The notes under the pieces are model-generated. The model was not told the origin of the DNA, did no database searches, and was given only the letters and a program-made list of their open reading frames with translations. DNA of 42,228 bases from a virus (taxonomy: Duplodnaviria; Heunggongvirae; Uroviricota; Caudoviricetes), in IMG/VR virus record IMGVR_UViG_648861009_000010. One strand, 5' to 3'. Below, one piece after another: positions 2,137 through 37,263 of this stretch. Position numbers and translations under genes: made by a program. Every line of letters begins with the position of its first letter. Position 1 is the first letter of the stretch.

Positions 2137-2459
2137 TGGGACCCCCTTTTGATTTCTTGTTTGACACTTGCAGTTGCCAGACCGCAAGGTGTTTTAACAA
2201 ATCAAAAGGGGTTTTAATAACTGGCTCAAAGCTGAAAGCTTTCCGGAACCCCCAGCCTAGCTGGGGGTTTTCTGTGCACAAAAAAACCCTCTGTAGTAAC
2301 AGAGGGTTTTGTTCATTCATAGTGCAGGGTCAAATCATTCCCACTCAATTATTTACGATAACCATAACCAATTGAGTGATAACATTTTTCCAAATCTCAA
2401 TTTTTATCGTACCGTTTTATATACCGTCACCGGAAATCAGTACCATGAAAAATGCCATG

Positions 2460-2942: not shown

Positions 2943-3568
2943 ACCGCCAGCACCTTACTGGCATTGATGTATCGCGCGCGCCGGTCGTCGATGCCGTTCC
3001 GGCCACCATTGATAATCAGAGTTACACGTGCAATATCGCCGGTATACTTCATGCATCCTTTGCTGGCAAAGAACCACGCCGCGCTACGAGCCGCGTATTC
3101 GTCCTGCGCCAGCAGTTCAGGACTCTCCAGCAGGTCAACCTTAAGACCGTTTCCACAGTCACGATAGTTATTCAAACCGGTAACCTGGATAAGCCCGCGC
3201 CCACGGTAGTTCCAGCCATCACCAGGGGCATTGTTCCCCATGCGTTTGCTGTACACCAGATTGGCAATCGCTCTCTGGCGCTCAAGTGGCAATGGTGGTT
3301 CGCCTGCACGTCGCCCCAATGCGTTGGCCTGTCCCTGAGTGAGACGCCCAGCCCGAACAAAGTTAGCCAGTCCGCTGACGCTGTAGTTGAAATTCTCCTG
3401 CAACCGGGTGAAGCCTCCAGACTCATGCCCGACCTGAGCAATAAACATAGCCTGATCTTCTGGTTTGCTGATACCAAACTCTTTCATCGCAGAAGTTATA
3501 TGCGAGAACCAGCGTGCGGCCAGTGCCTCGCTGATACCAGCAGCTCGCTGGAATTGTTTAATCTCCAT
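2939..3568 (-). CDS. Endolysin, glycoside hydrolase family 19 (chitinase-like) type
   Basis: 209 aa; motifs [11 protein letters not shown] and [13 protein letters not shown] recalled from GH19 phage lysins; sits between holin-like genes and Rz. Confidence 0.7.
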
Positions 3569-3866
3569 GTTTAGACCTCGATACTTTGAAAATTTGAACG
3601 ACGTTACCGCGCGTTTTAATAACCGCAGCTAGCATGACAGCGTTGATAATGACCTCAGATAAATCCACAGCCATTGGCGTACGTAACCAGATTGCATAGG
3701 CGACACGAACAGGAATACTGGCCGCAGCAACAATCAGGAAATAAGCAAGCCATCCTCCCCACCTTCGGTGTTGAGAGCCGTTACGCCGGAATGTGACAAC
3801 GCGAATTGCTATGCCAGTGCAAATAACTGCATTGGTGATAAGCAAAAAAAACTCATGCGTTACCAT
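3558..3866 (-). CDS. Small membrane protein, putative holin or antiholin
   Basis: 102 aa, 2-3 predicted TM helices, immediately upstream of the endolysin. Confidence 0.5.
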
Positions 3867-4266
3867 CGTCTTTTCTCCCCGGAATTAACTCGCGTGGATT
3901 ATCGGAACGGTGATAGAGCCATATACCAATACGCACAGCGACAATTGCTGACACGAATGCGCCTGCAGAGAAAACAATCCCTTTTTCAAAAGAGTCCTGC
4001 GTGATGGTAGGGATCAGGCTGGCTATGCCGATAAGAATTGATGCTGCTGGTTTGTAAAAGAGAAGGCCGCAAAGAAAGCTGAGCATCGACAGGAGCACCC
4101 GGCGACGGATGGGGTACTCTACTGCAGAGGTAACAAAAATTACCGCTCCAGCCAAAGCACCCAAAGCAACCTCAGGAGGAACTCCTGCTATCACCGCCGC
4201 CAGAGAACTCATGCTAAGCCACTGATTTAAAGTTTCACTGGTTAGTTGAGCTGACATGTTTTCCAC
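3853..4266 (-). CDS. Putative holin (multi-TM small membrane protein)
   Basis: 137 aa with several hydrophobic helices and a charged C-terminus; position in lysis cassette. Confidence 0.5.
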   Translation of the reverse strand: MENMSAQLTSETLNQWLSMSSLAAVIAGVPPEVALGALAGAVIFVTSAVEYPIRRRVLLSMLSFLCGLLFYKPAASILIGIASLIPTITQDSFEKGIVFSAGAFVSAIVAVRIGIWLYHRSDNPRELIPGRKDDGNA

Positions 4267-4754
4267 CGTTTATATGCATAACAACCTCCTGAACAGTAAA
4301 GCATTACGCATAATAAACCATTTATGGTTTTTGTTACTTTAACATCGTCAATTCCCTGTTTTTCATGCCGAGAATAAAGCTCACCTTTTACATGACTCTG
4401 AAGAAACAAACAGTGAAGAGCAGGTTGAATACCGCACCATTTAATGGCGCGGTAGCAGTCAAATAGAGAAATAAACACAAAAACAAAAACAACAGGAACA
4501 GCAAAATCCAACAGACTTCCCACATCCCACACGCGTGGATCAAAACCTCCCCACCACGGCATGTTGATACGTTTCCCTTTCCCAAACTTTTCTATCCAGC
4601 GATATTCTGCCTGGGTGTGTTCACGCGCAATGAAGAACGTACAACCGGCTATCGCACCGTAAGCCCAGTTTCCGGTAAAAATACCAACCAGTACCTGAGC
4701 CACAAAAGCGCAAAGCGAGTGAAGAAATGGAGTGACATCAATGCTCTTAATCAT
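4242..4754 (-). CDS. Integral membrane protein of unknown function between tailspike and lysis genes
   Basis: 170 aa; two long hydrophobic segments, Cys-rich C-terminus; start overlaps the tailspike stop. Confidence 0.55.
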   Translation of the reverse strand: MIKSIDVTPFLHSLCAFVAQVLVGIFTGNWAYGAIAGCTFFIAREHTQAEYRWIEKFGKGKRINMPWWGGFDPRVWDVGSLLDFAVPVVFVFVFISLFDCYRAIKWCGIQPALHCLFLQSHVKGELYSRHEKQGIDDVKVTKTINGLLCVMLYCSGGCYAYKRWKTCQLN

Positions 4755-7193
4755 GAAACTTCCCCATTGGTTGAAAATATGGCTCCTCCAACGCCAAGTG
4801 TATTTCGTGTTGTGCTCAACCTCAGAGGGCTGGAGTCAGAATTAGAATATCCTGTAGCAGAAATAAAAGATCCTCCACTAATAGTCAACTGCGGAACATC
4901 GGCTATATCTGAATAAGTTCTGTCAGCAACAGTATTATTTATAGCCACATATGATCCAAAAAAACTTCTTATTGTTTGGTTTTTAACTTTACTTCCTTCA
5001 ATGGTTATCCTACTACCACAGTCGGCAATAAATCCTGAATCTGCATCCAGCGTTGCATTCATAAAAGAAGCTTCAGATCTCTCTACATCAATCCATCTAA
5101 TATCTTTTGTGGGATTTGCACCAAATACATGACAAATATTAGAGTTAAACCTTACACCATCTTGGAGGTGCATTAATTTTTTTATATCTGTACCCCATAG
5201 CCTTGGAAAATTAACAGATGCTCCTGCATGGCAATCAAATCCCAGCTCAGCCCCTGAGATATCTACAGCCTTTCCTGAAATAACAGCACCAGTGTCTGCA
5301 TTAACGGCTGTTCCACAATTGCGCATATCATTACCAGCAACATCAACGCAACCCGCACCATCAATACGCACACCAAGTGCACATCCATAAAAACCTTTTT
5401 CAATATTTGGTTCAAGGACTTTACCACTTGTTTCTGCATCACTTTCTTCAACGTCATGTCGTCTTGCATCAACATATGCTGTATGAATGCAGGTTAATCC
5501 ACGATATGAGCAATGTATAGTTTTATGGTCGCGTATATTAACATTTGAACCATCTCTTACATTCCATCCTATATAACAATAGCTTGCACTTGACCCCTGA
5601 AAATCTGNNNNNNNNNNNNNNNNNNNNNNNNNNNNNNNNNNNNNNNNNNNNNNNNNNNNNNNNNNNNNNNNNNNNNNNNNNNNNNNNNNNNNNNNNNNNN
5701 NNNNNNNNNNNNNNNNNNNNNNNNNNNNNNNNNNNNNNNNNNNNNNNNATCCACGATATGAGCAATGTATAGTTTTATGGTCGCGTATATTAACATTTGA
5801 ACCATCTCTTACATTCCATCCTATATAACAATAGCTTGCACTTGACCCCTGAAAATCTGCTTTTAACATTATAAATACAATTAACTGACGCAACCGTACT
5901 CTCTGTGCACCGTTCAAACTTGCTTACAGGCATTGATGCCTTGACATTATTTACCAGTTGCAGGGAAGAGTATCTGCTATAAGAAAAATCACATACGTAA
6001 TACCCTTCTGGCATATATGCAGCAACACTTTCCTCATCAGGAGCACATCCGGTATGATATGCACTAATTTTTGCACCAAAACTACCATGAATTCCAACGT
6101 AGAACTTTCGAGCACCTGAATACGGATAGAAATTAAGTTCAGCTTTTTGAGTTACAATAAATGCACAAACATCGCTATCATCTCTATTTTCTTCGATCTG
6201 AATAGCAAATACAGGACTTTTTGCTGCATCGCAAATGTAAAATAAATACTTGTATTCGTAATACGTTCTAACGATTTTAGTAAACAAACGAGTGTCAGAG
6301 AAAACCACTGAGTCTTCTGATGTTATTTTAATCCAAGACAAATCAACACCTGAACTGAATTCAATTTGATAGTTGATAATATGCCCGGTCTTAATTCTTA
6401 TTTCGCAGAAAGCATTACCACCATCCCACATAGGTCTCATTGACTGGGCTGCAATGATTGCATCTTTGAGTGTAGGGTAATCACCCCATTCGCCAACAGT
6501 AATAACAAAAGTATAATATGAGTTAAAAACAGCGGCATTTTTGCCTTTGGATATCAACTCCTTAATCATAAAAATATTATCTTCGTAATCACAAGGAGAA
6601 ATTATATCCCTCATTTTGCTTTGAAATGTTCGTTGTCTTGCCCCGCTTCCTGACGGTATAAACCAACCAAAACCACCAACAACCCCGGCGATTGCAGCAT
6701 CGACATAATTACGCATTGAGCGATTATTTACAGCGTCCTGCTCAAATGATGGATCTGCAAGGTTAGAAATTTTGTTTTGCTTTGCATCGTAATATTTTGC
6801 AAGCAAAGATGGTTTCATCAATGCACGTCTGAACCACCCAAAACATCGCTGGATCAGCATCGTCAGGTAGTCAAATGCATCTTCATGAACTTCGGGGAAA
6901 AATTTTCCCTGATTGCGAAGATCAGTCTCCTGCACCACATCAAGCACACGCTCTATCGTAATTCGCCAGCCAGCAGCAAGCGGCGACGGGAGAACCACTT
7001 CACCGCCACTATAAGTGCCCGCTCCAGTTACCTTATAACCGGTATCCAGAACCAATTCTGTTACGTTCCCGTTCAGGTCAGACACCTGAACAACCAGGTC
7101 GGTTTTTTTGAAAATACGGAAGGTATACGGAAATGATGTCGTAACGCCGTTACCGGTGTATTCGTTGTGGTCAACTTCGGTTGAGACCGTCAT
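4751..7193 (-). CDS. Tailspike: T7-fibre-type N-terminal adaptor domain plus C-terminal parallel beta-helix domain; reading frame broken by gap and frame change (ORFs 5790-7193 and 4751-5917)
   Basis: N-terminus MTVSTEVDHNEYTGNGVTTSFPYTFRIFKK resembles podovirus tail fibre/tailspike anchor domains; C-terminal part has beta-helix-like repeats (NCGTAVNADTGAVISGKAVDISGAELGFDCHAGAS); SD GGAG 7 nt before ATG at 7193; 111-bp exact duplication flanks the N-run. Confidence 0.6.
5608..5748. other. Assembly gap (141 N) inside the tailspike, flanked by 111-bp exact duplicates (5497-5607 and 5749-5859)
   Basis: Identical sequence atccacgatatgagcaatgtatag...ccctgaaaatctg on both sides of the N-run. Confidence 0.95.
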
Positions 7194-7297
7194 GTTAAAT
7201 CTCCAGATAGTCGCAGCACCCGTTGCGCCGCATATCTGGTTATTCTATTACCTGAAAAACCACATATGGATAGAAAGGCTGTGAATATGAATAGATA

Positions 7298-7312
7298 TTA
7301 CCTTTCAGGTAA
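7298..7312. promoter_or_regulatory. Operator-like palindrome TTACC-TTTCA-GGTAA in the divergent tailspike / SOS-gene intergenic region
   Basis: Perfect 5-bp inverted arms; identical 16-mer ATTACCTTTCAGGTAA also at 26830-26845; half-site TTACC at 7248-7252. Confidence 0.55.
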
Positions 7313-7349
7313 TTTGCAAAACGTGCTGGATAGCAAACAAATTATTTGA

Positions 7350-7369
7350 TACTGTATATTTATACAGTT
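7350..7369. promoter_or_regulatory. LexA (SOS) box
   Basis: taCTGTatatttatACAGtt, a perfect CTGT-N8-ACAG with AT-rich spacer, 20 bp upstream of the ATG at 7389. Confidence 0.75.
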
Positions 7370-7388
7370 ATTGCATGGAGAAGATAAG

Positions 7389-7646
7389 ATGCAGCAGTAT
7401 CACTATCCACTGGAAGACGGATTTACCGAAAGGATTCACACGCCGGGAGGCGTCAGGTCACTGGTGGAGGGATCGCACTTGATGAAATTACTCCGGGATC
7501 TCGATAAGGATGGATTTAATGTCGATGGCCCACTTGCCGAACTGACTGCACTGATTAACTACGTCACCAGCTCACAGATGTCTATGCGGGATCTGCAAAC
7601 ACATCTCGACTATTGTGCCGAACAATTACGAAAACAAACCAGATAA
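7389..7646 (+). CDS. Small SOS-controlled protein, paralog of the C-terminal domain of the downstream BRO-N protein; candidate antirepressor
   Basis: 85 aa from ATG with SD GGAG 8 nt upstream; aligns with the 7947-8672 product C-terminus (LLRDLDKDGFNVDGPLAELT...RDLQTHLDY vs LLNQLQEDGHDVSGAAAELT...RDIQTHAEY). Confidence 0.65.
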   Translation: MQQYHYPLEDGFTERIHTPGGVRSLVEGSHLMKLLRDLDKDGFNVDGPLAELTALINYVTSSQMSMRDLQTHLDYCAEQLRKQTR

Positions 7647-7677
7647 GGTTTGCAATTACCAAATGGAGTGCTTATAT

Positions 7678-7692
7678 TTACCTTTGCGGTAA
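7678..7692. promoter_or_regulatory. Operator-like palindrome TTACC-TTTGC-GGTAA
   Basis: Perfect arms; abuts a TTTACA -35-like hexamer; half-site TTACC at 7655-7659. Confidence 0.5.
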
Positions 7693-7783
7693 ATTTACAT
7701 CGCACTCCTCTTGTGCCATAGTAATCGGGCACTGGCAAAATCCAGTGCCGGGATTGGCGTCCCGGGTTACTAAGTGGCGCATA

Positions 7784-7805
7784 CCACGCCAGACGTGGTT
7801 TTTTT
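7784..7805 (+). terminator. Rho-independent terminator-like hairpin in the 300-bp untranslated spacer
   Basis: ccacg-ccaga-cgtgg followed by 7 T; preceded by two more perfect hairpins (7728-7749, 7748-7765). Confidence 0.5.
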
Positions 7806-7946
7806 ATGCGTTAAGCACAGCTATATCCGAATTATGGTGGGCTGGGCAGGGGTCCGAAAGGACGCCGGTACCACTTAGGCCGGTACGCCAACCTTGTCCA
7901 GTTCACCACCAGTAATTGGCGTTGCGGTGGTGATTAAAATCACTAA

Positions 7947-8672
7947 GTGGAGATAACCACCATGGCTAATGCTCAAACTGCCATCTTCAAATTTGAATCT
8001 GTTAACCCTATCCGTTCCATCATTATCGATGGCCAACCATGGTTTGTAGCCCAAGACGTTTGTAGTGCGCTGCGTATCCAAAACGTCACCCAAGCACTTG
8101 AAAAACTGGATGATGATGAAAGGTCTATGTTCAACATAGGGCATGAACATCGTGCAATTTTTGACAGCCGAGTAAAAGAGATCAACATCATCTCCGAGTC
8201 AGGCCTCTACACACTGATCCTCCGCTGCCGCGACGCAGTGACACCAGGCACTATCCCCTACCGCTTTCGTAAATGGGTTACAGGTGAGGTTCTTCCTCAG
8301 ATCCGCCGCACCGGAAGTTACATTAAAAACTCGCTCCCGCAGGAAGAACGCATAAAGATAGTTGCCGACCAGGTAGCCAACGCCACAGCATCAGCAGTGA
8401 TGCAGGCAATGAAGATAGAGAACAAAACCTACAGTGCCCCACTGAAGCCCGGCTACCGCAGCCTGATTCATTCTCCGTCTGGTGTTCTCGGCCTGACGGA
8501 GAACTCACTGCTGATGAATCTGCTGAACCAGTTACAGGAAGACGGGCACGACGTATCGGGCGCGGCGGCGGAGCTGACCACCATGTTCTGCTACATTGTT
8601 GGTGTGAGCAAATGCCTGCGTGATATCCAGACCCACGCGGAGTACATCAACGACAAGGCTGGGTTCTTCTGA
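7947..8672 (+). CDS. BRO-N domain antirepressor-like protein (Ant-like)
   Basis: N-terminal BRO-N signature (IFKFESVNPIRSIIIDGQPWFVAQDVCSALRI ... SGLYTLILRCRDAVTPGTIPYRFRKWVTGEVLPQIRRTGSY); start may be ATG 7947 or 7962. Confidence 0.7.
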   Translation: MEITTMANAQTAIFKFESVNPIRSIIIDGQPWFVAQDVCSALRIQNVTQALEKLDDDERSMFNIGHEHRAIFDSRVKEINIISESGLYTLILRCRDAVTPGTIPYRFRKWVTGEVLPQIRRTGSYIKNSLPQEERIKIVADQVANATASAVMQAMKIENKTYSAPLKPGYRSLIHSPSGVLGLTENSLLMNLLNQLQEDGHDVSGAAAELTTMFCYIVGVSKCLRDIQTHAEYINDKAGFF

Positions 8673-8744
8673 CGGGCGGCGGCACAGGGATGTGCCTTTA
8701 AATAATTCTGTACAGATTGCAGACTGTGGGTGAATAGCGTACTA

Positions 8745-8759
8745 TTACCTTAAAGGTAA
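8745..8759. promoter_or_regulatory. Operator-like palindrome TTACC-TTAAA-GGTAA overlapping the moron promoter/RBS
   Basis: Perfect arms; directly abuts SD GGAGG of ORF 8772; putative -35 TTGCAG (8717) and -10 TACTAT (8740) upstream. Confidence 0.55.
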
Positions 8760-8771
8760 AGGAGGCGCGAT

Positions 8772-8939
8772 ATGACAGCGTTGAAAAATCGTACTCAGCA
8801 CAATGAACAAGCCAAGCAATGCTGGGATGTCATTGGAAAAGTTATGCTTGGCCGCGCAAGCAAAGAGCGCGACAAGGATATGGTTTACCAGACAGGAACA
8901 TCTTTCAGCGACTTCAAGGCGGCATTTCGCTCCAAATAG
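8772..8939 (+). CDS. Small protein (55 aa), unknown function, first gene of an AT-rich moron
   Basis: ATG with SD AAAGGAGG at 6-nt spacing; not in the ORF track (<60 aa); MTALKNRTQHNEQAKQCWDVIGKVMLGRASKERDKDMVYQTGTSFSDFKAAFRSK. Confidence 0.55.
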   Translation: MTALKNRTQHNEQAKQCWDVIGKVMLGRASKERDKDMVYQTGTSFSDFKAAFRSK

Positions 8940-9692: not shown

Positions 9693-10106
9693 TTATAAAG
9701 ATGACTGATATTTTACAACTCTGTTCATGGCATCTTTTTTCACCGAGCTGATATCAGTTCTTATTTTGGCTTCGTCATTACTGCTTATCATGCTATTAAT
9801 TTTTTGCACTGACATGCCGTTTCTTTCAGCCATTGCACATACAGCAGCATCGTATGAAGAACTCGCTGCGATGGATATCACCTTGTTACACTCAAACACA
9901 GCACCTTCAGCAATATCAGATGCCGATGAGGCTGGCTTGGTATAAGTCTTGACGTAGTGATCAATACAACTATCCTTCGCCGTCTTGGCAAGAGAAAAAT
10001 CCATTTTAACTTTGTCGCAATATGCCTTATCAACACCGTCATAAACATCATAGGATGTCGAGCAAGCGGATATCAAAAATACCGATAACAGCAATAATTC
10101 CTTCAT
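9693..10106 (-). CDS. AT-rich phage lipoprotein; candidate superinfection-exclusion / lysogenic-conversion moron
   Basis: 137 aa; lipobox LISAC after a hydrophobic signal; SD AGGA 6 nt upstream; terminal gene after the ejection-protein genes; uses AGA for Arg. Confidence 0.6.
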   Translation of the reverse strand: MKELLLLSVFLISACSTSYDVYDGVDKAYCDKVKMDFSLAKTAKDSCIDHYVKTYTKPASSASDIAEGAVFECNKVISIAASSSYDAAVCAMAERNGMSVQKINSMISSNDEAKIRTDISSVKKDAMNRVVKYQSSL

Positions 10107-10115
10107 TGTTGTTCC

Positions 10116-12590
10116 TTATTGCGGAGTGACATCCTGAGGTCGCCACCAGTATGTCTGGTTAAACTCTTTCTTCGAACGTTGCTCCATTTTACGCAAATAG
10201 CCTGGTGAAAAATACTCCTGCATCTGATTAAAGATCATGTGATCGAGAGCCGCCTTCAAGTACCAGAGATTCGCACCAGGCATCAAACCTTTCCCAAGCT
10301 TAACCAGATCACCACCAGTCTGCTCATTCTTCCCTTCCACAGCATTTAACGGTATGCCCTGAGCAATCTTCACTACGTCATCAACCAGACCAGCTACCGG
10401 GCCAAGCATCGACGCTAGTGCGCCGCTCCCGTACCTGGTATGGTCAGAGAAAAGAAAATCACCATACAACCCTGCCCCACCACCTTTTAAAAATGCATTT
10501 ATCCAGAATTTAACCATGTTGTCACCGGTCATTTCTTTTGGATTTCTCCCATTAATAAGATCAGTAATCTGCATGGAAAGAGCACCAAGCATGGTTGTGC
10601 TTGCTAAAAACGTTGCTATATATGCCGCACGCCCACCAGCAGACGGCATCCCCATAGCTCTATGCCAGTGACGCATAACTACCGAGATAGGGAACGATTT
10701 AAACAGGAAAACACTTCTCGTTAATTCACCTTTCCATGTTCCACGCTGAAGACCAGACCCTACGAACATCTGTTCACGTGCGCCCGGTGTAATAACAGCC
10801 ATATCAACTTCTTCAGTTACGGCACCGAGCAGTTTACGCATTGCCTCAAATTTCACGCGTTCAGGCTCACCAAGATGTTTAACTGCTGAATCAGGGATAC
10901 GCATAATGCTTTCCGGTGTCAGCATCGTATTATTACCGTTCCCCCAGTCCTCCTGTTGCGCCAGCTTCCATACGCTCCAGTCTGTGTCAGTAATCCCTTT
11001 GCTTTTCAGGATACGAAAATCAGAGTCATCGAGGCTACGAAGGTCTGGTGTCCGTGACACTACTTCTCCCAGGCTTCCCATCATGGTTACGCCATAGGCG
11101 CGCTTGTGCGCATCTGACCATGCTGTAAGCCCACTGGCACGCATTACCGCCGTTGCCGCCCAACGAGACACAGACGGCCCCATATTATCCATCGCCCAGC
11201 GGTTAACGCTGCCAAGTAGAGATTCCATCGCCAGGCCAGCGCGGCGCGCCCGCGCAAGTTCTGTACGGTTCGTTGGGTCCATAGCTTCAAGCTGGTTGCG
11301 AAATAACTGGTTCATTGGAAGGTTGGTAACCTTCGCAGACAGATACATGGTTCCAAGATCAGAGAACGATGACAGCAACGCGGATCCGAGTCTGCTGGCA
11401 ACCAGCCAGTTGCGGATATTGTCAGACCATCGCGCGATGTGCGGATTCGCTACAGGCTGTGTTTTTCCGGAAATAAAGTTGTACAAGTTCTCTGTTTTGT
11501 TCGCCAGACGCTCGACGCTACCGGTTTTACTCGGGTTAGCTGTTGCCGTTTCTGCCTTAACCTGATCAAGAAGGGAGCGGAAAACATGATCGGGGTTTGG
11601 GCCATATGTTTCCACCAGCGCAATATCTTTACTGATACCTTCCAGGTGACCGACCATGATTTCCCATAGAGAGCGATCGCCATAAAGTTGCTGATATTGC
11701 AGATAGGAATCTGCATCTTTGAAATGTATCTGTCGTGATGCATTACCACGGTTAGCACGTGCTCCGGAAATTCGCATTCCGGTGTCAGTAAGCTTATTCA
11801 GCCCACCAGTAGCGATCGTGTTATAAGCCTCTCCAAGAAATGCAGACAACTCGGCATCGTTCATCAGTTGTCCATCGGCTCGGGTATAATATTTGCGATC
11901 CAGCTTACCTATAACATCGCTAACCCATTTATCTTTTGATACCGCCCCAACCTTTTCCATAGAATGATGTTGAGGGATCCCCCAGTTTTCGAGATAGCCA
12001 ATGTCCCCACCAGCATCATTAAACCGGCGGCGAAGTAGATCTGTCACTTCTCTCCACGCCTTAGCACCTTTTCTTGCTTTAGCATTGCCAGTATTTTGCC
12101 CTCGCATTTCATATACCAGGTCACGCACGCCCGCTTCATCTTCAAACAGGCCAAAAAAGCGAGGATCAACTGCTTCAAATGCCTCCTGCAATTGACTCAA
12201 TGCATAATCACGAGTGGCTTTTGTTCTGGATTCAACAGAGAGGAAATTCGATTTACCGTCTGCATTAAAAGCAATAGTACGGTTAAGAGCGCCAAGTTTC
12301 CCATCAGCCCCTTGATAGTTATTGATAAATTTATCCAATCTCTGACGTGCGGCTATAGTGAGGGCCACACGACGTTTCTTTAATGCCGCTTCTCGCTGTA
12401 ATTCTTCAGATGCCAATTGTGCTGCACGATACAACCGTTCTGATTCGGAAAGTTGTCGCCACGACATCTGGTCATCACGAGCAATGGAGCGCATATTTCG
12501 ATAAATGCGGTCTTCAATGTTCTGTATTTCTCGCGCCGTTAACGTGCGCTGCGCCGCCTGCTGGACCGCTTGTATACATTCCTGTCTCAT
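10116..12590 (-). CDS. Large internal virion / ejection protein (T7 gp16-like position)
   Basis: 824-aa ORF in the structural gene run, tightly packed with neighbours; function by position only. Confidence 0.5.
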   Translation of the reverse strand: MRQECIQAVQQAAQRTLTAREIQNIEDRIYRNMRSIARDDQMSWRQLSESERLYRAAQLASEELQREAALKKRRVALTIAARQRLDKFINNYQGADGKLGALNRTIAFNADGKSNFLSVESRTKATRDYALSQLQEAFEAVDPRFFGLFEDEAGVRDLVYEMRGQNTGNAKARKGAKAWREVTDLLRRRFNDAGGDIGYLENWGIPQHHSMEKVGAVSKDKWVSDVIGKLDRKYYTRADGQLMNDAELSAFLGEAYNTIATGGLNKLTDTGMRISGARANRGNASRQIHFKDADSYLQYQQLYGDRSLWEIMVGHLEGISKDIALVETYGPNPDHVFRSLLDQVKAETATANPSKTGSVERLANKTENLYNFISGKTQPVANPHIARWSDNIRNWLVASRLGSALLSSFSDLGTMYLSAKVTNLPMNQLFRNQLEAMDPTNRTELARARRAGLAMESLLGSVNRWAMDNMGPSVSRWAATAVMRASGLTAWSDAHKRAYGVTMMGSLGEVVSRTPDLRSLDDSDFRILKSKGITDTDWSVWKLAQQEDWGNGNNTMLTPESIMRIPDSAVKHLGEPERVKFEAMRKLLGAVTEEVDMAVITPGAREQMFVGSGLQRGTWKGELTRSVFLFKSFPISVVMRHWHRAMGMPSAGGRAAYIATFLASTTMLGALSMQITDLINGRNPKEMTGDNMVKFWINAFLKGGGAGLYGDFLFSDHTRYGSGALASMLGPVAGLVDDVVKIAQGIPLNAVEGKNEQTGGDLVKLGKGLMPGANLWYLKAALDHMIFNQMQEYFSPGYLRKMEQRSKKEFNQTYWWRPQDVTPQ

Positions 12591-21018: not shown

Positions 21019-21476
21019 NNNNNNNNNNNNNNNNNNNNNNNNNNNNNNNNNNNNNNNNNNNNNNNNNNNNNNNNNNNNNNNNNNNNNNNNNNNNNNNNNN
21101 NNNNNNNNNNNNNNNNNNNNNNNNNNNNNNNNNNNNNNNNNNNNNNNNNNNNNNNNNNNNNNNNNNNNNNNNNNNNNNNNNNNNNNNNNNNNNNNNNNNN
21201 NNNNNNNNNNNNNNNNNNNNNNNNNNNNNNNNNNNNNNNNNNNNNNNNNNNNNNNNNNNNNNNNNNNNNNNNNNNNNNNNNNNNNNNNNNNNNNNNNNNN
21301 NNNNNNNNNNNNNNNNNNNNNNNNNNNNNNNNNNNNNNNNNNNNNNNNNNNNNNNNNNNNNNNNNNNNNNNNNNNNNNNNNNNNNNNNNNNNNNNNNNNN
21401 NNNNNNNNNNNNNNNNNNNNNNNNNNNNNNNNNNNNNNNNNNNNNNNNNNNNNNNNNNNNNNNNNNNNNNNNNNNN
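21019..21476. other. Assembly gap (458 N) within the head-tail joining genes
   Basis: N-run; the upstream minus-strand gene runs into it. Confidence 0.95.
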
Positions 21477-27167: not shown

Positions 27168-27244
27168 GTGGCATTAGCTCAGTTGGACAGAGCAACCGCC
27201 TTCTAAGCGGTTGGTCGCAGGTTCGAATCCTGCATGCCACGCCA
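27168..27244 (+). tRNA. tRNA-Arg (anticodon UCU), phage-encoded
   Basis: Cloverleaf folded by hand: acceptor GTGGCAT/ATGCCAC, D-stem GCTC/GAGC, anticodon stem ACCGC/GCGGT with loop CTTCTAA, T-arm GCAGG-TTCGAAT-CCTGC, discriminator G, encoded CCA. Confidence 0.85.
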
Positions 27245-27330: not shown

Positions 27331-27407
27331 CAGCAGGACGCCATTGCGATGACTTCATGCTGTAAACCCGTACAGCCACGGAAGGCATAACTCATTGCTT
27401 CCAGTTC

Positions 27408-34069: not shown

Positions 34070-34084
34070 TTACCCCTTAGGTAA
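34070..34084. promoter_or_regulatory. Operator-like palindrome TTACC-CCTTA-GGTAA
   Basis: Perfect arms, 4 bp upstream of the ATG at 34066; the spacer contains the SD. Confidence 0.5.
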
Positions 34085-36159: not shown

Positions 36160-36390
36160 TCATGAGTAGAAGAAGTATGCCAGTTCTGCTTTTGAGCGCA
36201 ACCATTGTCTTGTTTTACAGGCTTTAAAAAGCCCATTCATCAATACTTTACCTGGCATTTTGCGCTTACCTGTTAAGTGAGTCTGGATATAATGACTCGT
36301 CGTTCCGGCTTCCTGTGCGAAGGCTTCACGCTCATCCGGAGTAAGTGCAAGCCAGTGCTTTTTGAAATCGAAATGTCCGTTATCGCTCAT
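36160..36390 (-). CDS. Cro-like HTH regulator
   Basis: 76 aa; HTH-like segment EAFAQEAGTTSHYIQTHLTGKRK; divergent from the repressor gene across an operator-rich region. Confidence 0.5.
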   Translation of the reverse strand: MSDNGHFDFKKHWLALTPDEREAFAQEAGTTSHYIQTHLTGKRKMPGKVLMNGLFKACKTRQWLRSKAELAYFFYS

Positions 36391-36426: not shown

Positions 36427-36489
36427 TCACCCATAAGGTAACAAAAATCAAGGATAGTTACCTATGGGGTGCATTTACCTGTTGGGTAA
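36427..36489. promoter_or_regulatory. Immunity-region operator cluster (three TTACC-N5-GGTAA-type sites)
   Basis: TCACC-CATAA-GGTAA (36427-36441), TTACC-TATGG-GGTGC (36458-36472), perfect TTACC-TGTTG-GGTAA (36475-36489); an imperfect site TTACC-TTTGA-GGTAC lies at 36090-36104. Confidence 0.6.
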
Positions 36490-36544: not shown

Positions 36545-37129
36545 ATGAAAAGTATCCAGGACGTCCGCAGGCAAAATCTCAACGACTTGATCGACCGTGA
36601 ATTCAATGGTGTTCAGACGCGGATGGCTGAAAAACTTGGAACTCAGGCAAATCTGGTAAACCGCTGGGCTCTTGGCAAGAAGGTTATCGGCGACCAGGTT
36701 GCGCGAAAAATTGAAGCTGCCGCCAATAAACCCCGTAACTGGCTTGATATCGATCGCTCGCTTTCTCAGGAAGGTTTTCAGCCTGTCGGCCCTAGCGACA
36801 TTGGTCAGCTGGCGGCTCACAACCTGGAACGCTGGATGAGCGAAAGCCGCGACCTTTCAACGCAGGGAAAACTACACCGCGCATCCGGCGTCGCCCAGGT
36901 GACAATCAGCCGCCTGTTAAACAATGAGGTCAGCGTTTCCATTTCCACCCTGGAGAATGTTGCATCCGCATTCGGGCGTCACGGCTATGAATTACTGATT
37001 CACCCGCACGACCCTGCGACCATCAACTATGATCGCTCGCGCTACGCATTGTTACCCGAAACCGAGAAAGCAAAGATCGAAAGTTACATTGAATTTGTCA
37101 TCAACCAGAACGAAAAAAACAAACAATAA
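36545..37129 (+). CDS. Prophage repressor candidate: two XRE-type HTH-like segments, no LexA-like (S24) cleavage domain
   Basis: 194 aa; HTH-like TRMAEKLGTQANLVNRWALGKKVIGDQVARKIEAA and RASGVAQVTISRLLNNEVSVSISTLENVASAFG; no Ala-Gly / Ser-Lys peptidase motifs; own terminator. Confidence 0.55.
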   Translation: MKSIQDVRRQNLNDLIDREFNGVQTRMAEKLGTQANLVNRWALGKKVIGDQVARKIEAAANKPRNWLDIDRSLSQEGFQPVGPSDIGQLAAHNLERWMSESRDLSTQGKLHRASGVAQVTISRLLNNEVSVSISTLENVASAFGRHGYELLIHPHDPATINYDRSRYALLPETEKAKIESYIEFVINQNEKNKQ

Positions 37130-37186: not shown

Positions 37187-37201
37187 TTACCTAATGGGTA
37201 A
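37187..37201. promoter_or_regulatory. Operator-like palindrome TTACC-TAATG-GGTAA (pL-like region)
   Basis: Perfect arms, upstream of TTGACA at 37221. Confidence 0.55.
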
Positions 37202-37248
37202 TTTTTTTAACTCATATCTATTGACATCAAACCAAATACGCATAATTA

Positions 37249-37263
37249 TTACCTCAACGGTAA
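37249..37263. promoter_or_regulatory. Operator-like palindrome TTACC-TCAAC-GGTAA overlapping the -10/+1 of the early-left promoter
   Basis: Perfect arms; TTGACA 37221-37226, -10-like ATAATT about 15 bp downstream, ORF start at 37283. Confidence 0.55.

Follow-up and report, generated by a model that had tools for sequence, protein, structure and literature searches.

A 42,228-nucleotide stretch of phage DNA (here called the window) contains an 85-aa gene with a match to the LexA operator on its 5′ side and a longer gene for a Bro-N protein on its 3′ side. Do these elements form a circuit in which the SOS response induces a prophage through an antirepressor, and what part does the longer gene play? 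The original prediction was of such a circuit, in which the small LexA-controlled protein shares a repressor-binding domain with the Bro-N protein and acts in trans on a non-cleavable repressor. All of the sequence features that it described lie where it placed them. The source is an epsilon15/phiV10-like (Uetakevirus) phage of Escherichia coli. We conclude, with a probability of about 0.85, that the region contains two antirepressor units with one repressor-binding domain common to both. The features are collected in Table 1.

Table 1. Features of the antirepressor region and of the rep region, with positions in the window.
Feature	Position	Strand	Basis or remark
Tail fiber or tailspike N-terminus (epsilon15/phiV10 correspondence)	5790-7193	-	neighbor of ant
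Palindrome TTACCTTTCAGGTAA, putative Rep operator	7298-7312	.	tailspike-ant divergent intergenic region, abuts TTGCAA hexamer
LexA (SOS) box TACTGTATATTTATACAGTT	7350-7369	+	18/20 consensus positions, single match in window
ant, stand-alone 85-aa antirepressor, SPC32H Ant ortholog	7389-7646	+	5D50 chain E, phrog_450, synteny
Palindrome TTACCTTTGCGGTAA, putative Rep operator	7678-7692	.	directly 5′ of isrK promoter-like -35
Predicted sigma-70-like promoter TTTACA-17-CATAGT, upstream TG	7694-7722	+	consensus scan
isrK-like small RNA, intrinsic terminator	7729-7805	+	Rfam RF01394
C4-type antisense RNA	7830-7913	+	Rfam RF01695, 66 bits against gathering threshold 45
Second C4 target pair	7916-7950	+	TTGGCGT 7916-7922, CTAAGTGG 7943-7950; exact complementarity to C4 loops
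Composite antirepressor, Bro-N plus C-terminal Ant-like domain (about 8418-8663)	7962-8672	+	Pfam, 5D50, PHROG
Palindrome cluster, putative operators	36427-36489	.	between rep and divergent cro-like gene
rep, prophage repressor, SPC32H Rep ortholog	36545-37129	+	5D50 chain A, HTH only
Two palindromes, putative operators of rightward early operon	37187-37263	.	62 bp apart, flank TTGACA promoter downstream of rep

The 85-aa gene begins at ATG 7389 and has its stop codon at 7644-7646, with GGAG about 8 nt 5′ of the ATG. Residues 2-84 of the product (Ant) match PDB 5D50 chain E, named 'Anti-repressor protein', with E = 1.4e-46 (phmmer). The gene of Salmonella phage SPC32H for this protein is labeled 'ant: anti-repressor protein' in GenBank, and its product was crystallised with Rep. 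Ant has 86.7% identity to the annotated SPC32H ant (tblastn), and the homology to this stand-alone protein of about 86 aa is full-length. The two genes occupy equivalent places, flanked by the tailspike gene and the virion genes, and the tailspike gene that was predicted to adjoin the module is indeed its neighbor. The strong PHROG matches are to phrog_450 (7e-48) and phrog_15539, both unannotated, with one weak match to an antirepressor family. Pfam and NCBIfam yielded no family for the Ant domain, and no Tum-annotated or other antirepressor family; a sub-threshold match to DUF724 was dismissed as chance. By sequence, the gene that follows the LexA box is the E. coli-phage version of SPC32H ant. 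The main use of this assignment is to correct the annotation of genes labeled 'hypothetical protein' in phiV10 and TL-2011b and in many prophages of E. coli.

The LexA box predicted upstream of this gene is present and close to consensus, with 18 of the 20 positions in agreement with the E. coli LexA sequence TACTGTATATATATACAGTA and a gap of 19 nt to the ATG of ant. A search with the full 20-mer, allowing up to three mismatches, gave this one match in the window, and none of 100 shuffles contained any. The loose pattern CTGT-N8-ACAG occurs twice in the window against 0.58 expected, a number that 13 of the 100 shuffles reach. Its second occurrence, at 27360-27375, was ruled out as an SOS box on account of the GC-rich spacer and the chance-compatible count. 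The box is kept at the same place in phiV10, TL-2011b, SPC32H, Tyrion and L009. The Klebsiella phage keeps the ant ORF and has a variant box (left half ATGT, not CTGT). SPC32N differs from SPC32H by a one-base C-to-A change in the right half-site of the box (ACAG to AAAG); in 2013 Kim and Ryu reportedly described SPC32N as a lytic variant with constitutive synthesis of Ant. A consensus promoter scan found no promoter for ant, where the hexamers are weak. Inspection by eye gives two candidates, TAGCAA-18-TATATT inside the LexA box and TTGCAA-17-ACAAAT.

The predicted target of the circuit is a repressor that lacks a LexA-like autocleavage domain. The protein encoded by rep matches PDB 5D50 chain A, 'Repressor', over residues 1-190 including the C-terminal domain, with E = 4e-42. 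In Pfam (E ≤ 0.1) it matches HTH families only, HTH_3 and a weak YdaS-like HTH, with no Peptidase_S24, in agreement with the prediction. Its sequence has the organization of an SPC32H-type cognate Rep, that is an HTH followed by a C-terminal tetramerisation/Ant-binding domain, and in the SPC32H annotation ant and rep are syntenic with the genes here. In secondary accounts of SPC32H, LexA-controlled Ant inhibits the repressor through protein-protein contact, an Ant tetramer binding the C-terminal domain of Rep and splitting the Rep tetramer into two dimers. The suggestion that the domain shared by Ant and the Bro-N protein is the repressor-binding module fits these accounts well. Disassembly of the Rep tetramer by LexA-repressed Ant was reportedly described by Kim and Ryu in 2013 and by Kim and coworkers in 2016.

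The first unit (7298-7646) would be the SOS switch of Uetakevirus. In a lysogen, LexA of the host would occupy its box and keep ant off. DNA damage would remove LexA, leading to synthesis of the 85-aa Ant, which would then bind the C-terminal domain of the presumably non-cleavable Rep. The DNA-binding tetramer would be broken into dimers, and the lytic promoters derepressed. These steps have been shown for the SPC32H orthologs and are transferred here by orthology; for LexA binding, the Ant-Rep contact and SOS induction the extrapolation is from an Ant with 87% identity and from a Rep in which only about half of the residues are identical. E. coli prophages of the phiV10 species undergo 21- to 47-fold induction under a DNA-damaging microcin. 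Every element of the proposed circuit has its match in the characterised Ant/Rep system of SPC32H, and we regard the circuit as real. Its novelty does not stand, because the inactivation of a non-cleavable repressor by SPC32H Ant upon DNA damage is already in print; the combination of LexA, a small antirepressor and a non-cleavable repressor has been textbook-level for Uetakevirus since 2013-2016. There is a modest addition, namely that a second antirepressor, controlled by RNA, adjoins ant and carries the same domain.

This second protein is the product of the Bro-N gene. Residues 22-117 of the 241-aa ORF match Pfam Bro-N (PF02498) with E = 1e-19 and 71.3 bits against a gathering threshold of 25.6; the true start is likely ATG 7962 (giving 236 aa), not GTG 7947. 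The C-terminal part, residues 155-231, matches 5D50 chain E with E = 1.2e-13, and in PHROG the protein matches phrog_450 (4e-36) and phrog_130, 'anti-repressor Ant' (1e-55). The claim that Ant is a paralog of this C-terminus holds. Pairwise BLASTP aligns Ant 2-75 with residues 160-233 of the 241-aa ORF, ungapped, with 32 of 74 residues identical (43%) and E = 2e-16, and both proteins fall in phrog_450. Between the Ant orthologs and the Bro-N C-terminus 23 positions are invariant. We therefore denote the composite protein Bro-N::Ant-C.

The Ant domain is rare, with 63 clusters found in an exhaustive profile search. A word-indexed homolog search with Ant returned close stand-alone orthologs only, and it was the profile search that revealed the fused architectures. 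The domain occurs either alone or at the C-terminus behind Bro-N, AntA, pRha or ORF6N, and always in this slot; in every context examined the genome was Uetakevirus-like and the domain lay next to the small ant. The crystallised 86-aa Ant thus corresponds to the C-terminal part of a few modular antirepressors, so that a repressor-binding role for this domain is likely.

The DNA between ant and the Bro-N gene has matches to two RNA families. Transcription from the promoter-like site is predicted to start about 6 nt past the -10 hexamer, near 7729, where the isrK match begins with position 1 of the Rfam model. This match scores 67.7 bits against a gathering threshold of 50, has its terminator at 7783-7799 with a run of T after it, and lies upstream of an antirepressor-like gene, as does isrK in Gifsy-1. 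A match to c4-a1b1 (RF03163) at 7716-7768 scored 44.1 bits, under the gathering threshold of 46.7. In the C4-type RNA that follows, the pairing elements are a hairpin loop CCACTTAG (7871-7878) and the unpaired ACGCCAA (7885-7891), and in the MFE fold precisely these two segments are single-stranded. The first target pair lies inside isrK (TTGGCGT at 7754-7760 and CTAAGTGG at 7770-7777), and in the second the CTAAGTGG element overlaps the Bro-N Shine-Dalgarno sequence. This is a C4 arrangement, with two exposed elements, duplicated targets, and the downstream pair on the ribosome-binding site of the antirepressor. The C4 match is also found in seven relatives (phiV10, TL-2011b, the Klebsiella phage, Tyrion, L009, L010 and L011). 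In four of these (phiV10, TL-2011b, the Klebsiella phage and Tyrion) the loops and targets covary, with compensatory changes and the same layout. The loop sequence differs between phages, being CCACTTAG in the window and CCTTTTAG in phiV10. The isrK-C4 cassette is present wherever there is a composite X::Ant-C gene, and is absent from SPC32H, which has no such gene.

With its own promoter-like site, the isrK terminator upstream and predicted C4 control, the Bro-N gene is outside the LexA unit and is not driven by LexA. The second unit (7678-8672) would be a cassette of the P1-immI / Gifsy-1-isrK type. Transcription from the promoter directly beside a Rep-type palindrome would give the isrK-like RNA, and then by read-through of the terminator C4 followed by Bro-N::Ant-C. 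The C4 loops would pair with both target sets, in isrK and at the Bro-N ribosome-binding site; since the latter target covers the ribosome-binding site, translation of the composite antirepressor should be shut off in the lysogen. The evidence here for C4 pairing and covariation is in silico, and the RNA mechanism has been shown for P1/P7 c4 and Gifsy-1 IsrK.

The palindrome in front of this promoter belongs to a larger set. The pattern TTACC-N5-GGTAA occurs 13 times in the window against 0.47 expected; with a 6-nt spacer nothing relevant was found in the window, and 5 nt is the correct spacing. It is probably the operator of Rep, and marks promoter regions across the genome. The half-sites of the palindrome between tailspike and ant are conserved in six aligned relatives, and the site has the same position in SPC32H and phiV10. 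The arrangement palindrome-N1-TTTACA found at isrK also occurs in L009, L010 and L011. Between rep and the cro-like gene there are sites at 36427 and 36475, with a degenerate one near 36459 seen by eye, and the mirrored position of SPC32H has three (34390, 34407 and 34437). The 62-bp pair downstream of rep is repeated at 34070/34132, and is also present in SPC32H and phiV10. The conserved palindrome provides a testable genome-wide operator map for Rep.

Other explanations of these DNA sites were considered. If the LexA box were a chance palindrome, the small ORF might be a non-functional duplicate of the 3′ end of the Bro-N gene. The numbers for the loose CTGT-N8-ACAG pattern would allow this, but the full 20-mer was unmatched in any shuffle, and box and ORF are conserved together among Escherichia, Salmonella and Enterobacter phages. 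Furthermore, the ortholog was crystallised as an antirepressor, and SPC32H, in which there is no Bro-N gene, still carries the small one. The conservation and the SPC32H data refute this explanation, which we consider extremely improbable. The TTACC-N5-GGTAA palindromes could be sites of some other phage regulator, either the 76-aa Cro-like protein (36160-36390) or a late-promoter activator, in which case neither the ant nor the isrK promoter would be under the control of Rep. In SPC32H and phiV10 they also precede late operons (terminase, portal, tailspike and lysis), and at ant and isrK the palindrome abuts a -35 hexamer; by eye its center at isrK is near -44, a geometry typical of activators. 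Yet the densest clusters flank rep itself, and their arrangement in pairs or triplets agrees with binding by a tetramer that occupies two palindromes. Moreover, operators are usually common to Cro-type and CI-type proteins, so the two assignments are not exclusive. We regard sites for a different regulator as less likely, and binding by Rep as the probable function of the palindromes.

It is similarly pertinent to ask what Bro-N::Ant-C binds. We infer that it acts on the same Rep via the Ant-like domain, and it would then be an anti-immunity or lock-in factor. It might instead target the repressors of heteroimmune Uetakevirus prophages, or the domain might only oligomerise a DNA-binding function of Bro-N. 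Identity between the C-terminal domain and Ant is only about 40% (41-43%), so that a different partner is possible, while Ant orthologs across genera have 60-87% identity. The swapping of N-terminal domains (Bro-N, AntA, pRha and ORF6N) suggests that these have a function of their own. In phiV10 the Bro-N gene is split in two pieces, which is evidently tolerated, and the gene must therefore be dispensable at least in that phage. But there are the 23 positions invariant between the Ant orthologs and the Bro-N C-terminus, composites are confined to genomes with the small ant, both among the examined contexts and within the phage collection, and antisense control by C4 is classic for true antirepressors. 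We therefore think a different target or a purely oligomerising role rather unlikely.

Taking Bro-N::Ant-C to act on Rep, a more speculative proposal can be made, that the Ant fold is a portable Rep-binding module deployed twice by Uetakevirus-like phages in a two-tier relay. We advance this tentatively. In the first tier the free module, controlled by LexA, would sense DNA damage and release Rep. In the second it would be fused to interchangeable KilA-N-type heads (Bro-N, AntA, pRha or ORF6N) and controlled by the isrK/C4 RNA and by a promoter with an adjacent putative Rep operator, so that release of Rep would change the output of isrK, C4 and Bro-N::Ant-C. If true, this would provide a positive-feedback lock of the switch, or an anti-immunity exported to co-resident or superinfected relatives, and the variants of the C4 loop would define immI-like specificity classes.

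The closest known system is Ant/Rep of SPC32H (Kim & Ryu 2013, J Virol 87:11775; Kim et al. 2016, PNAS 113:E2480; PDB 5D50 and 5D4Z), also a Uetakevirus, with the same tailspike ← → ant gene order, the LexA box in the same place and a Rep without S24. The host is Salmonella there and E. coli here, and SPC32H lacks the isrK-C4-Bro-N::Ant-C cassette, which lies 3′ of ant here and in phiV10, TL-2011b, Tyrion and Klebsiella relatives. Tum of coliphage 186 and GfoA/GftA of Gifsy are likewise small LexA-repressed antirepressors that inactivate a non-cleavable repressor by protein contact. Ant matches no Tum-annotated antirepressor family in Pfam or NCBIfam, the comparison being made via family searches. 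The original authors of the SPC32H work reportedly consider Ant structurally distinct from the Tum/Gifsy-type antirepressors.

The position of the module had suggested an analogy with immI of P22 (mnt-arc-ant, with sar RNA). The analogy holds for the location beside the tailspike and for an antisense RNA in the control of ant, but the RNA here is C4-type, not sar. P22 has a C2 repressor that undergoes RecA-dependent cleavage, and its SOS induction does not require ant. Searches in Pfam and NCBIfam gave no match for the 55-aa ORF at 8772-8939 and hence no relative of Mnt or Arc, and the ORF list has no other small regulator gene in 7194-8770. Control of the P22 Mnt/Arc type was accordingly rejected, and the module is nearer to P1/P7 immI (c4-ant) and Gifsy-1 isrK-anrP. 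In Gifsy-1 isrK-orf45(STnc1160)-anrP the isrK-family RNA has a leaky terminator, after which come a processed RNA and a gene that resembles those of antirepressors; the prophage is induced when AnrP is expressed (Hershko-Shalev et al. 2016, PMC4825925). The present phage has no AntQ link, and no homology between AnrP and Ant-C was found at the sensitivity of the phage-collection search.

In P1/P7 immI (c4-icd-ant), as here, an RNA of the C4 family lies 5′ of the antirepressor gene on the same strand, with two loops and duplicated target pairs that flank the RNA, the downstream pair falling on a ribosome-binding site, and loop/target specificity varies among related phages. Here the target is the antirepressor's own Shine-Dalgarno sequence, with only 48 nt from the C4 match to the ATG and no icd-like leader ORF between C4 and Bro-N, and the upstream targets are within a terminated RNA of the isrK type. 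The antirepressor is Bro-N::Ant-C, not a homolog of P1 Ant, and it coexists with a separate antirepressor controlled by LexA. These phages thus pair two classical antirepressor controls side by side, the LexA protein repressor and the C4 antisense RNA.

The locus region is 92–97% identical to the E. coli phages HEMP4, TL-2011b and phiV10, which are members of, or similar to, the genus Uetakevirus (epsilon15 group). The sequence at 7350-7369, TACTGTATATTTATACAGTT, agrees with the E. coli SOS-box consensus at 18 of 20 positions. No other site in the 42-kb window comes within three mismatches of this consensus, and no match appeared in 100 dinucleotide shuffles. The looser pattern CTGT-N8-ACAG, for which 0.58 occurrences are expected, is present twice; in the second copy (27360) the spacer is GC-rich. 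Nineteen nucleotides past the box, and behind a GGAG, the ATG of an 85-codon ORF (ant) lies at 7389; the ORF ends at 7646. Its product is 86.7% identical to that of the annotated ant of Salmonella phage SPC32H, which lies in the same position, divergent from the tailspike gene, and it matches PDB 5D50 chain E ('Anti-repressor protein') with E=1.4e-46. The full length of the protein encoded at 36545-37129 aligns with 5D50 chain A ('Repressor'; E=4e-42), and rep of SPC32H is annotated at the syntenic position. Pfam found only helix-turn-helix domains in this protein, and no S24 peptidase domain. BLASTP pairs Ant residues 2-75 with positions 160-233 of the 241-aa product of the ORF at 7947-8672, without gaps and at 43% identity (E=2e-16). 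The box, ORF, alignment and domain checks therefore confirm each feature listed in the original prediction: a LexA box upstream of an 85-aa gene, a product paralogous to the C-terminus of the Bro-N protein, and a repressor candidate that has no LexA-like autocleavage domain.

The prediction went on to link these features in a circuit by which SOS induction of the antirepressor relieves repression. The box is kept in phiV10, TL-2011b, Tyrion, SPC32H and prophage L009, and ATGT-N8-ACAG replaces it in more distant relatives (a Klebsiella phage and prophages L010 and L011). This variant, found repeatedly in three lineages, could be a LexA site that is weaker by design. Direct sequence comparison gives a right half-site of ACAG in SPC32H and AAAG in SPC32N. 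These two phages reportedly differ, in a 2013 study of SPC32H, by two nucleotides, one of which lies in the LexA box and renders Ant constitutive. As described in secondary sources on SPC32H, Rep is a tetramer on DNA that is broken when an Ant tetramer binds two Rep dimers, both tetramerization and Ant binding being via the Rep C-terminal domain. In a 2026 preprint, a DNA-damaging microcin induced E. coli prophages of the phiV10 species 21- to 47-fold. The orthology with SPC32H, the published descriptions, the conservation of the box and the prophage induction thus support the interpretation; the mechanism is already described in a congeneric phage, crystal structure included.

The window contains 13 copies of a palindrome, TTACC-N5-GGTAA, where 0.47 would be expected; 10 are perfect, and nearly all lie in promoter regions or between genes. 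There are 18 copies in SPC32H and 14 in phiV10, at homologous intergenic positions. Clusters lie on either side of rep, pairs with 62-bp spacing recur, and the arrangement palindrome-N1-TTTACA before isrK is kept even in distant relatives. Rep is the obvious candidate to bind these sites, since the published account of Rep is consistent with a tetramer that reads two palindromes, and they are probably the Rep operator set. Their geometry is compatible with either repression or activation and does not say which. If they are Rep operators, Rep would be a genome-wide regulator, late operons included.

Two plus-strand ORFs follow the Bro-N gene (8772-8939 and 8819/8963-9400; phrog_8607 and phrog_5954), for which Pfam and NCBIfam gave no match. 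Three masked runs of N (1542-1930, 5608-5748 and 21019-21476) total 988 bases. The second breaks the reading frame of the tailspike gene, which therefore probably extends over ~4751-7193.

Features of the window and of related genomes
Feature	Position	Strand	Description
STnc490 Hfq-binding RNA	2146-2269	-	Rfam, 146 bits
Palindrome	7298-7312		tailspike-ant intergenic region
Palindrome	7678-7692		abuts -35 of isrK promoter-like site
Promoter-like site	7694-7722		TTTACA-17-CATAGT; predicted transcription start ~7729
C4 a1/b1 target model	7716-7768		Rfam, near-threshold match
isrK-family RNA	7729-7805		Rfam, 67.7 bits (threshold 50)
Intrinsic terminator	7783-7805		end of isrK
C4 antisense RNA	7830-7913		Rfam, 66 bits (threshold 45)
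Palindrome	8745-8759		overlaps ribosome-binding site of 55-aa ORF at 8772
Palindromes	26831, 29973/29991, 34070/34132, 36090		
tRNA gene	27168-27241	+	
Palindromes	36427/36475		one side of rep, with a degenerate site
Palindromes	37187/37249		other side of rep, around TTGACA promoter
C4 loop, target: phiV10/TL-2011b			CCTTTTAG, CTAAAAGG
C4 loop, target: Klebsiella phage			CCGTTTAG, CTAAACGG
C4 loop, target: Tyrion			CCTTTGTAG, CTACAAAGG
Second element: Tyrion			C4 AGACCAA, target TTGGTCT
Variant SOS box, Klebsiella phage L004	~2950-2975		TATATGT-N8-ACAGTA; ATGT for CTGT, left half
Variant SOS box, L010	9555-9578		as L004
Variant SOS box, L011	2810-2835	-	as L004
Composite beside ant, L009	10001-10651		Ant-like C-terminal domain
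Composite beside ant, L010	~10240-10960		Ant-like C-terminal domain
Composite beside ant, L011	1699-2466		Ant-like C-terminal domain

The ~300 bp separating ant from the Bro-N gene hold RNA elements that the original prediction overlooked. isrK would be transcribed from the promoter-like site preceding it. The minimum-energy fold of the C4 RNA leaves CCACTTAG (7871-7878) and ACGCCAA (7885-7891) unpaired, and these are exactly complementary to TTGGCGT and CTAAGTGG within isrK (7754-7760 and 7770-7777). The same pair recurs at 7916-7922 and 7943-7950, where CTAAGTGG overlaps the Shine-Dalgarno sequence of the Bro-N gene. Loop and both targets covary across relatives. The loop sequences differ among otherwise close phages.

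The N-terminal part of the 241-aa ORF is a Bro-N domain (Pfam, 1e-19), and translation probably starts at ATG 7962, giving 236 aa. The C-terminal part has matches to 5D50 chain E (E=1.2e-13) and phrog_450 (4e-36), and shares 23 invariant positions with diverse Ant orthologs. A profile search with the Ant domain across 1.84 billion representative proteins returned only 63 clusters, in which the domain is either stand-alone (~85-95 aa) or C-terminal behind Bro-N, AntA, Phage_pRha or ORF6N. Full-length Bro-N::Ant-C was found in 18 phage records, and small Ant co-occurs in every one listed (E. coli, Enterobacter and Klebsiella phages); the remaining Bro-N proteins are similar in the N-domain only. 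All three composites placed in genomes (L009, L010 and L011) lie in Uetakevirus-like prophages, follow isrK and C4, and have small ant and the tailspike gene as neighbours. SPC32H has neither the isrK/C4 cassette nor the composite gene. By inference, the Ant fold would serve as the module that binds Rep, and the composite would be a second antirepressor acting on the same repressor type.

The slot itself is variable. AntA, Phage_pRha or ORF6N takes the place of Bro-N in the three prophage composites, and L011 has its cassette in inverted orientation with respect to ant. In phiV10 (3760-4439, p23/p22) Bro-N::Ant-C is split into ORFs of 194 and 29 aa, which looks like a frameshift, and TL-2011b (3780-4868) carries ~1.1 kb inserted between ant and isrK. 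A 319-aa database gene call in L010 (10001-10960) spans the isrK and C4 RNA genes (10003-10189); the true start of this pRha::Ant-C ORF is most likely near 10239.

What remains of interest is the use of one repressor-binding domain in tandem under two different classical controls, LexA and C4 RNA. Also of interest are the palindrome that recurs across the genome and the modular heads at the N-terminus; we judge none of the three very surprising. The isrK and C4 elements, the pairing of loop and target and the immI-like architecture argue that the Bro-N gene would be a separately controlled, RNA-silenced antirepressor gene outside the LexA unit. In immI of P1 and P7, heteroimmunity is set by c4 RNA, which blocks the region of the antirepressor mRNA where ribosomes bind. 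By sequence, the differing loops and targets of close phages imply distinct immI-like specificity classes, as for P1 versus P7. The C4/Bro-N cassette has the same architecture as immI, but P1 has the icd leader ORF and the cassette has no icd-like counterpart. It also shares its architecture with the isrK-orf45-anrP locus of Gifsy-1.
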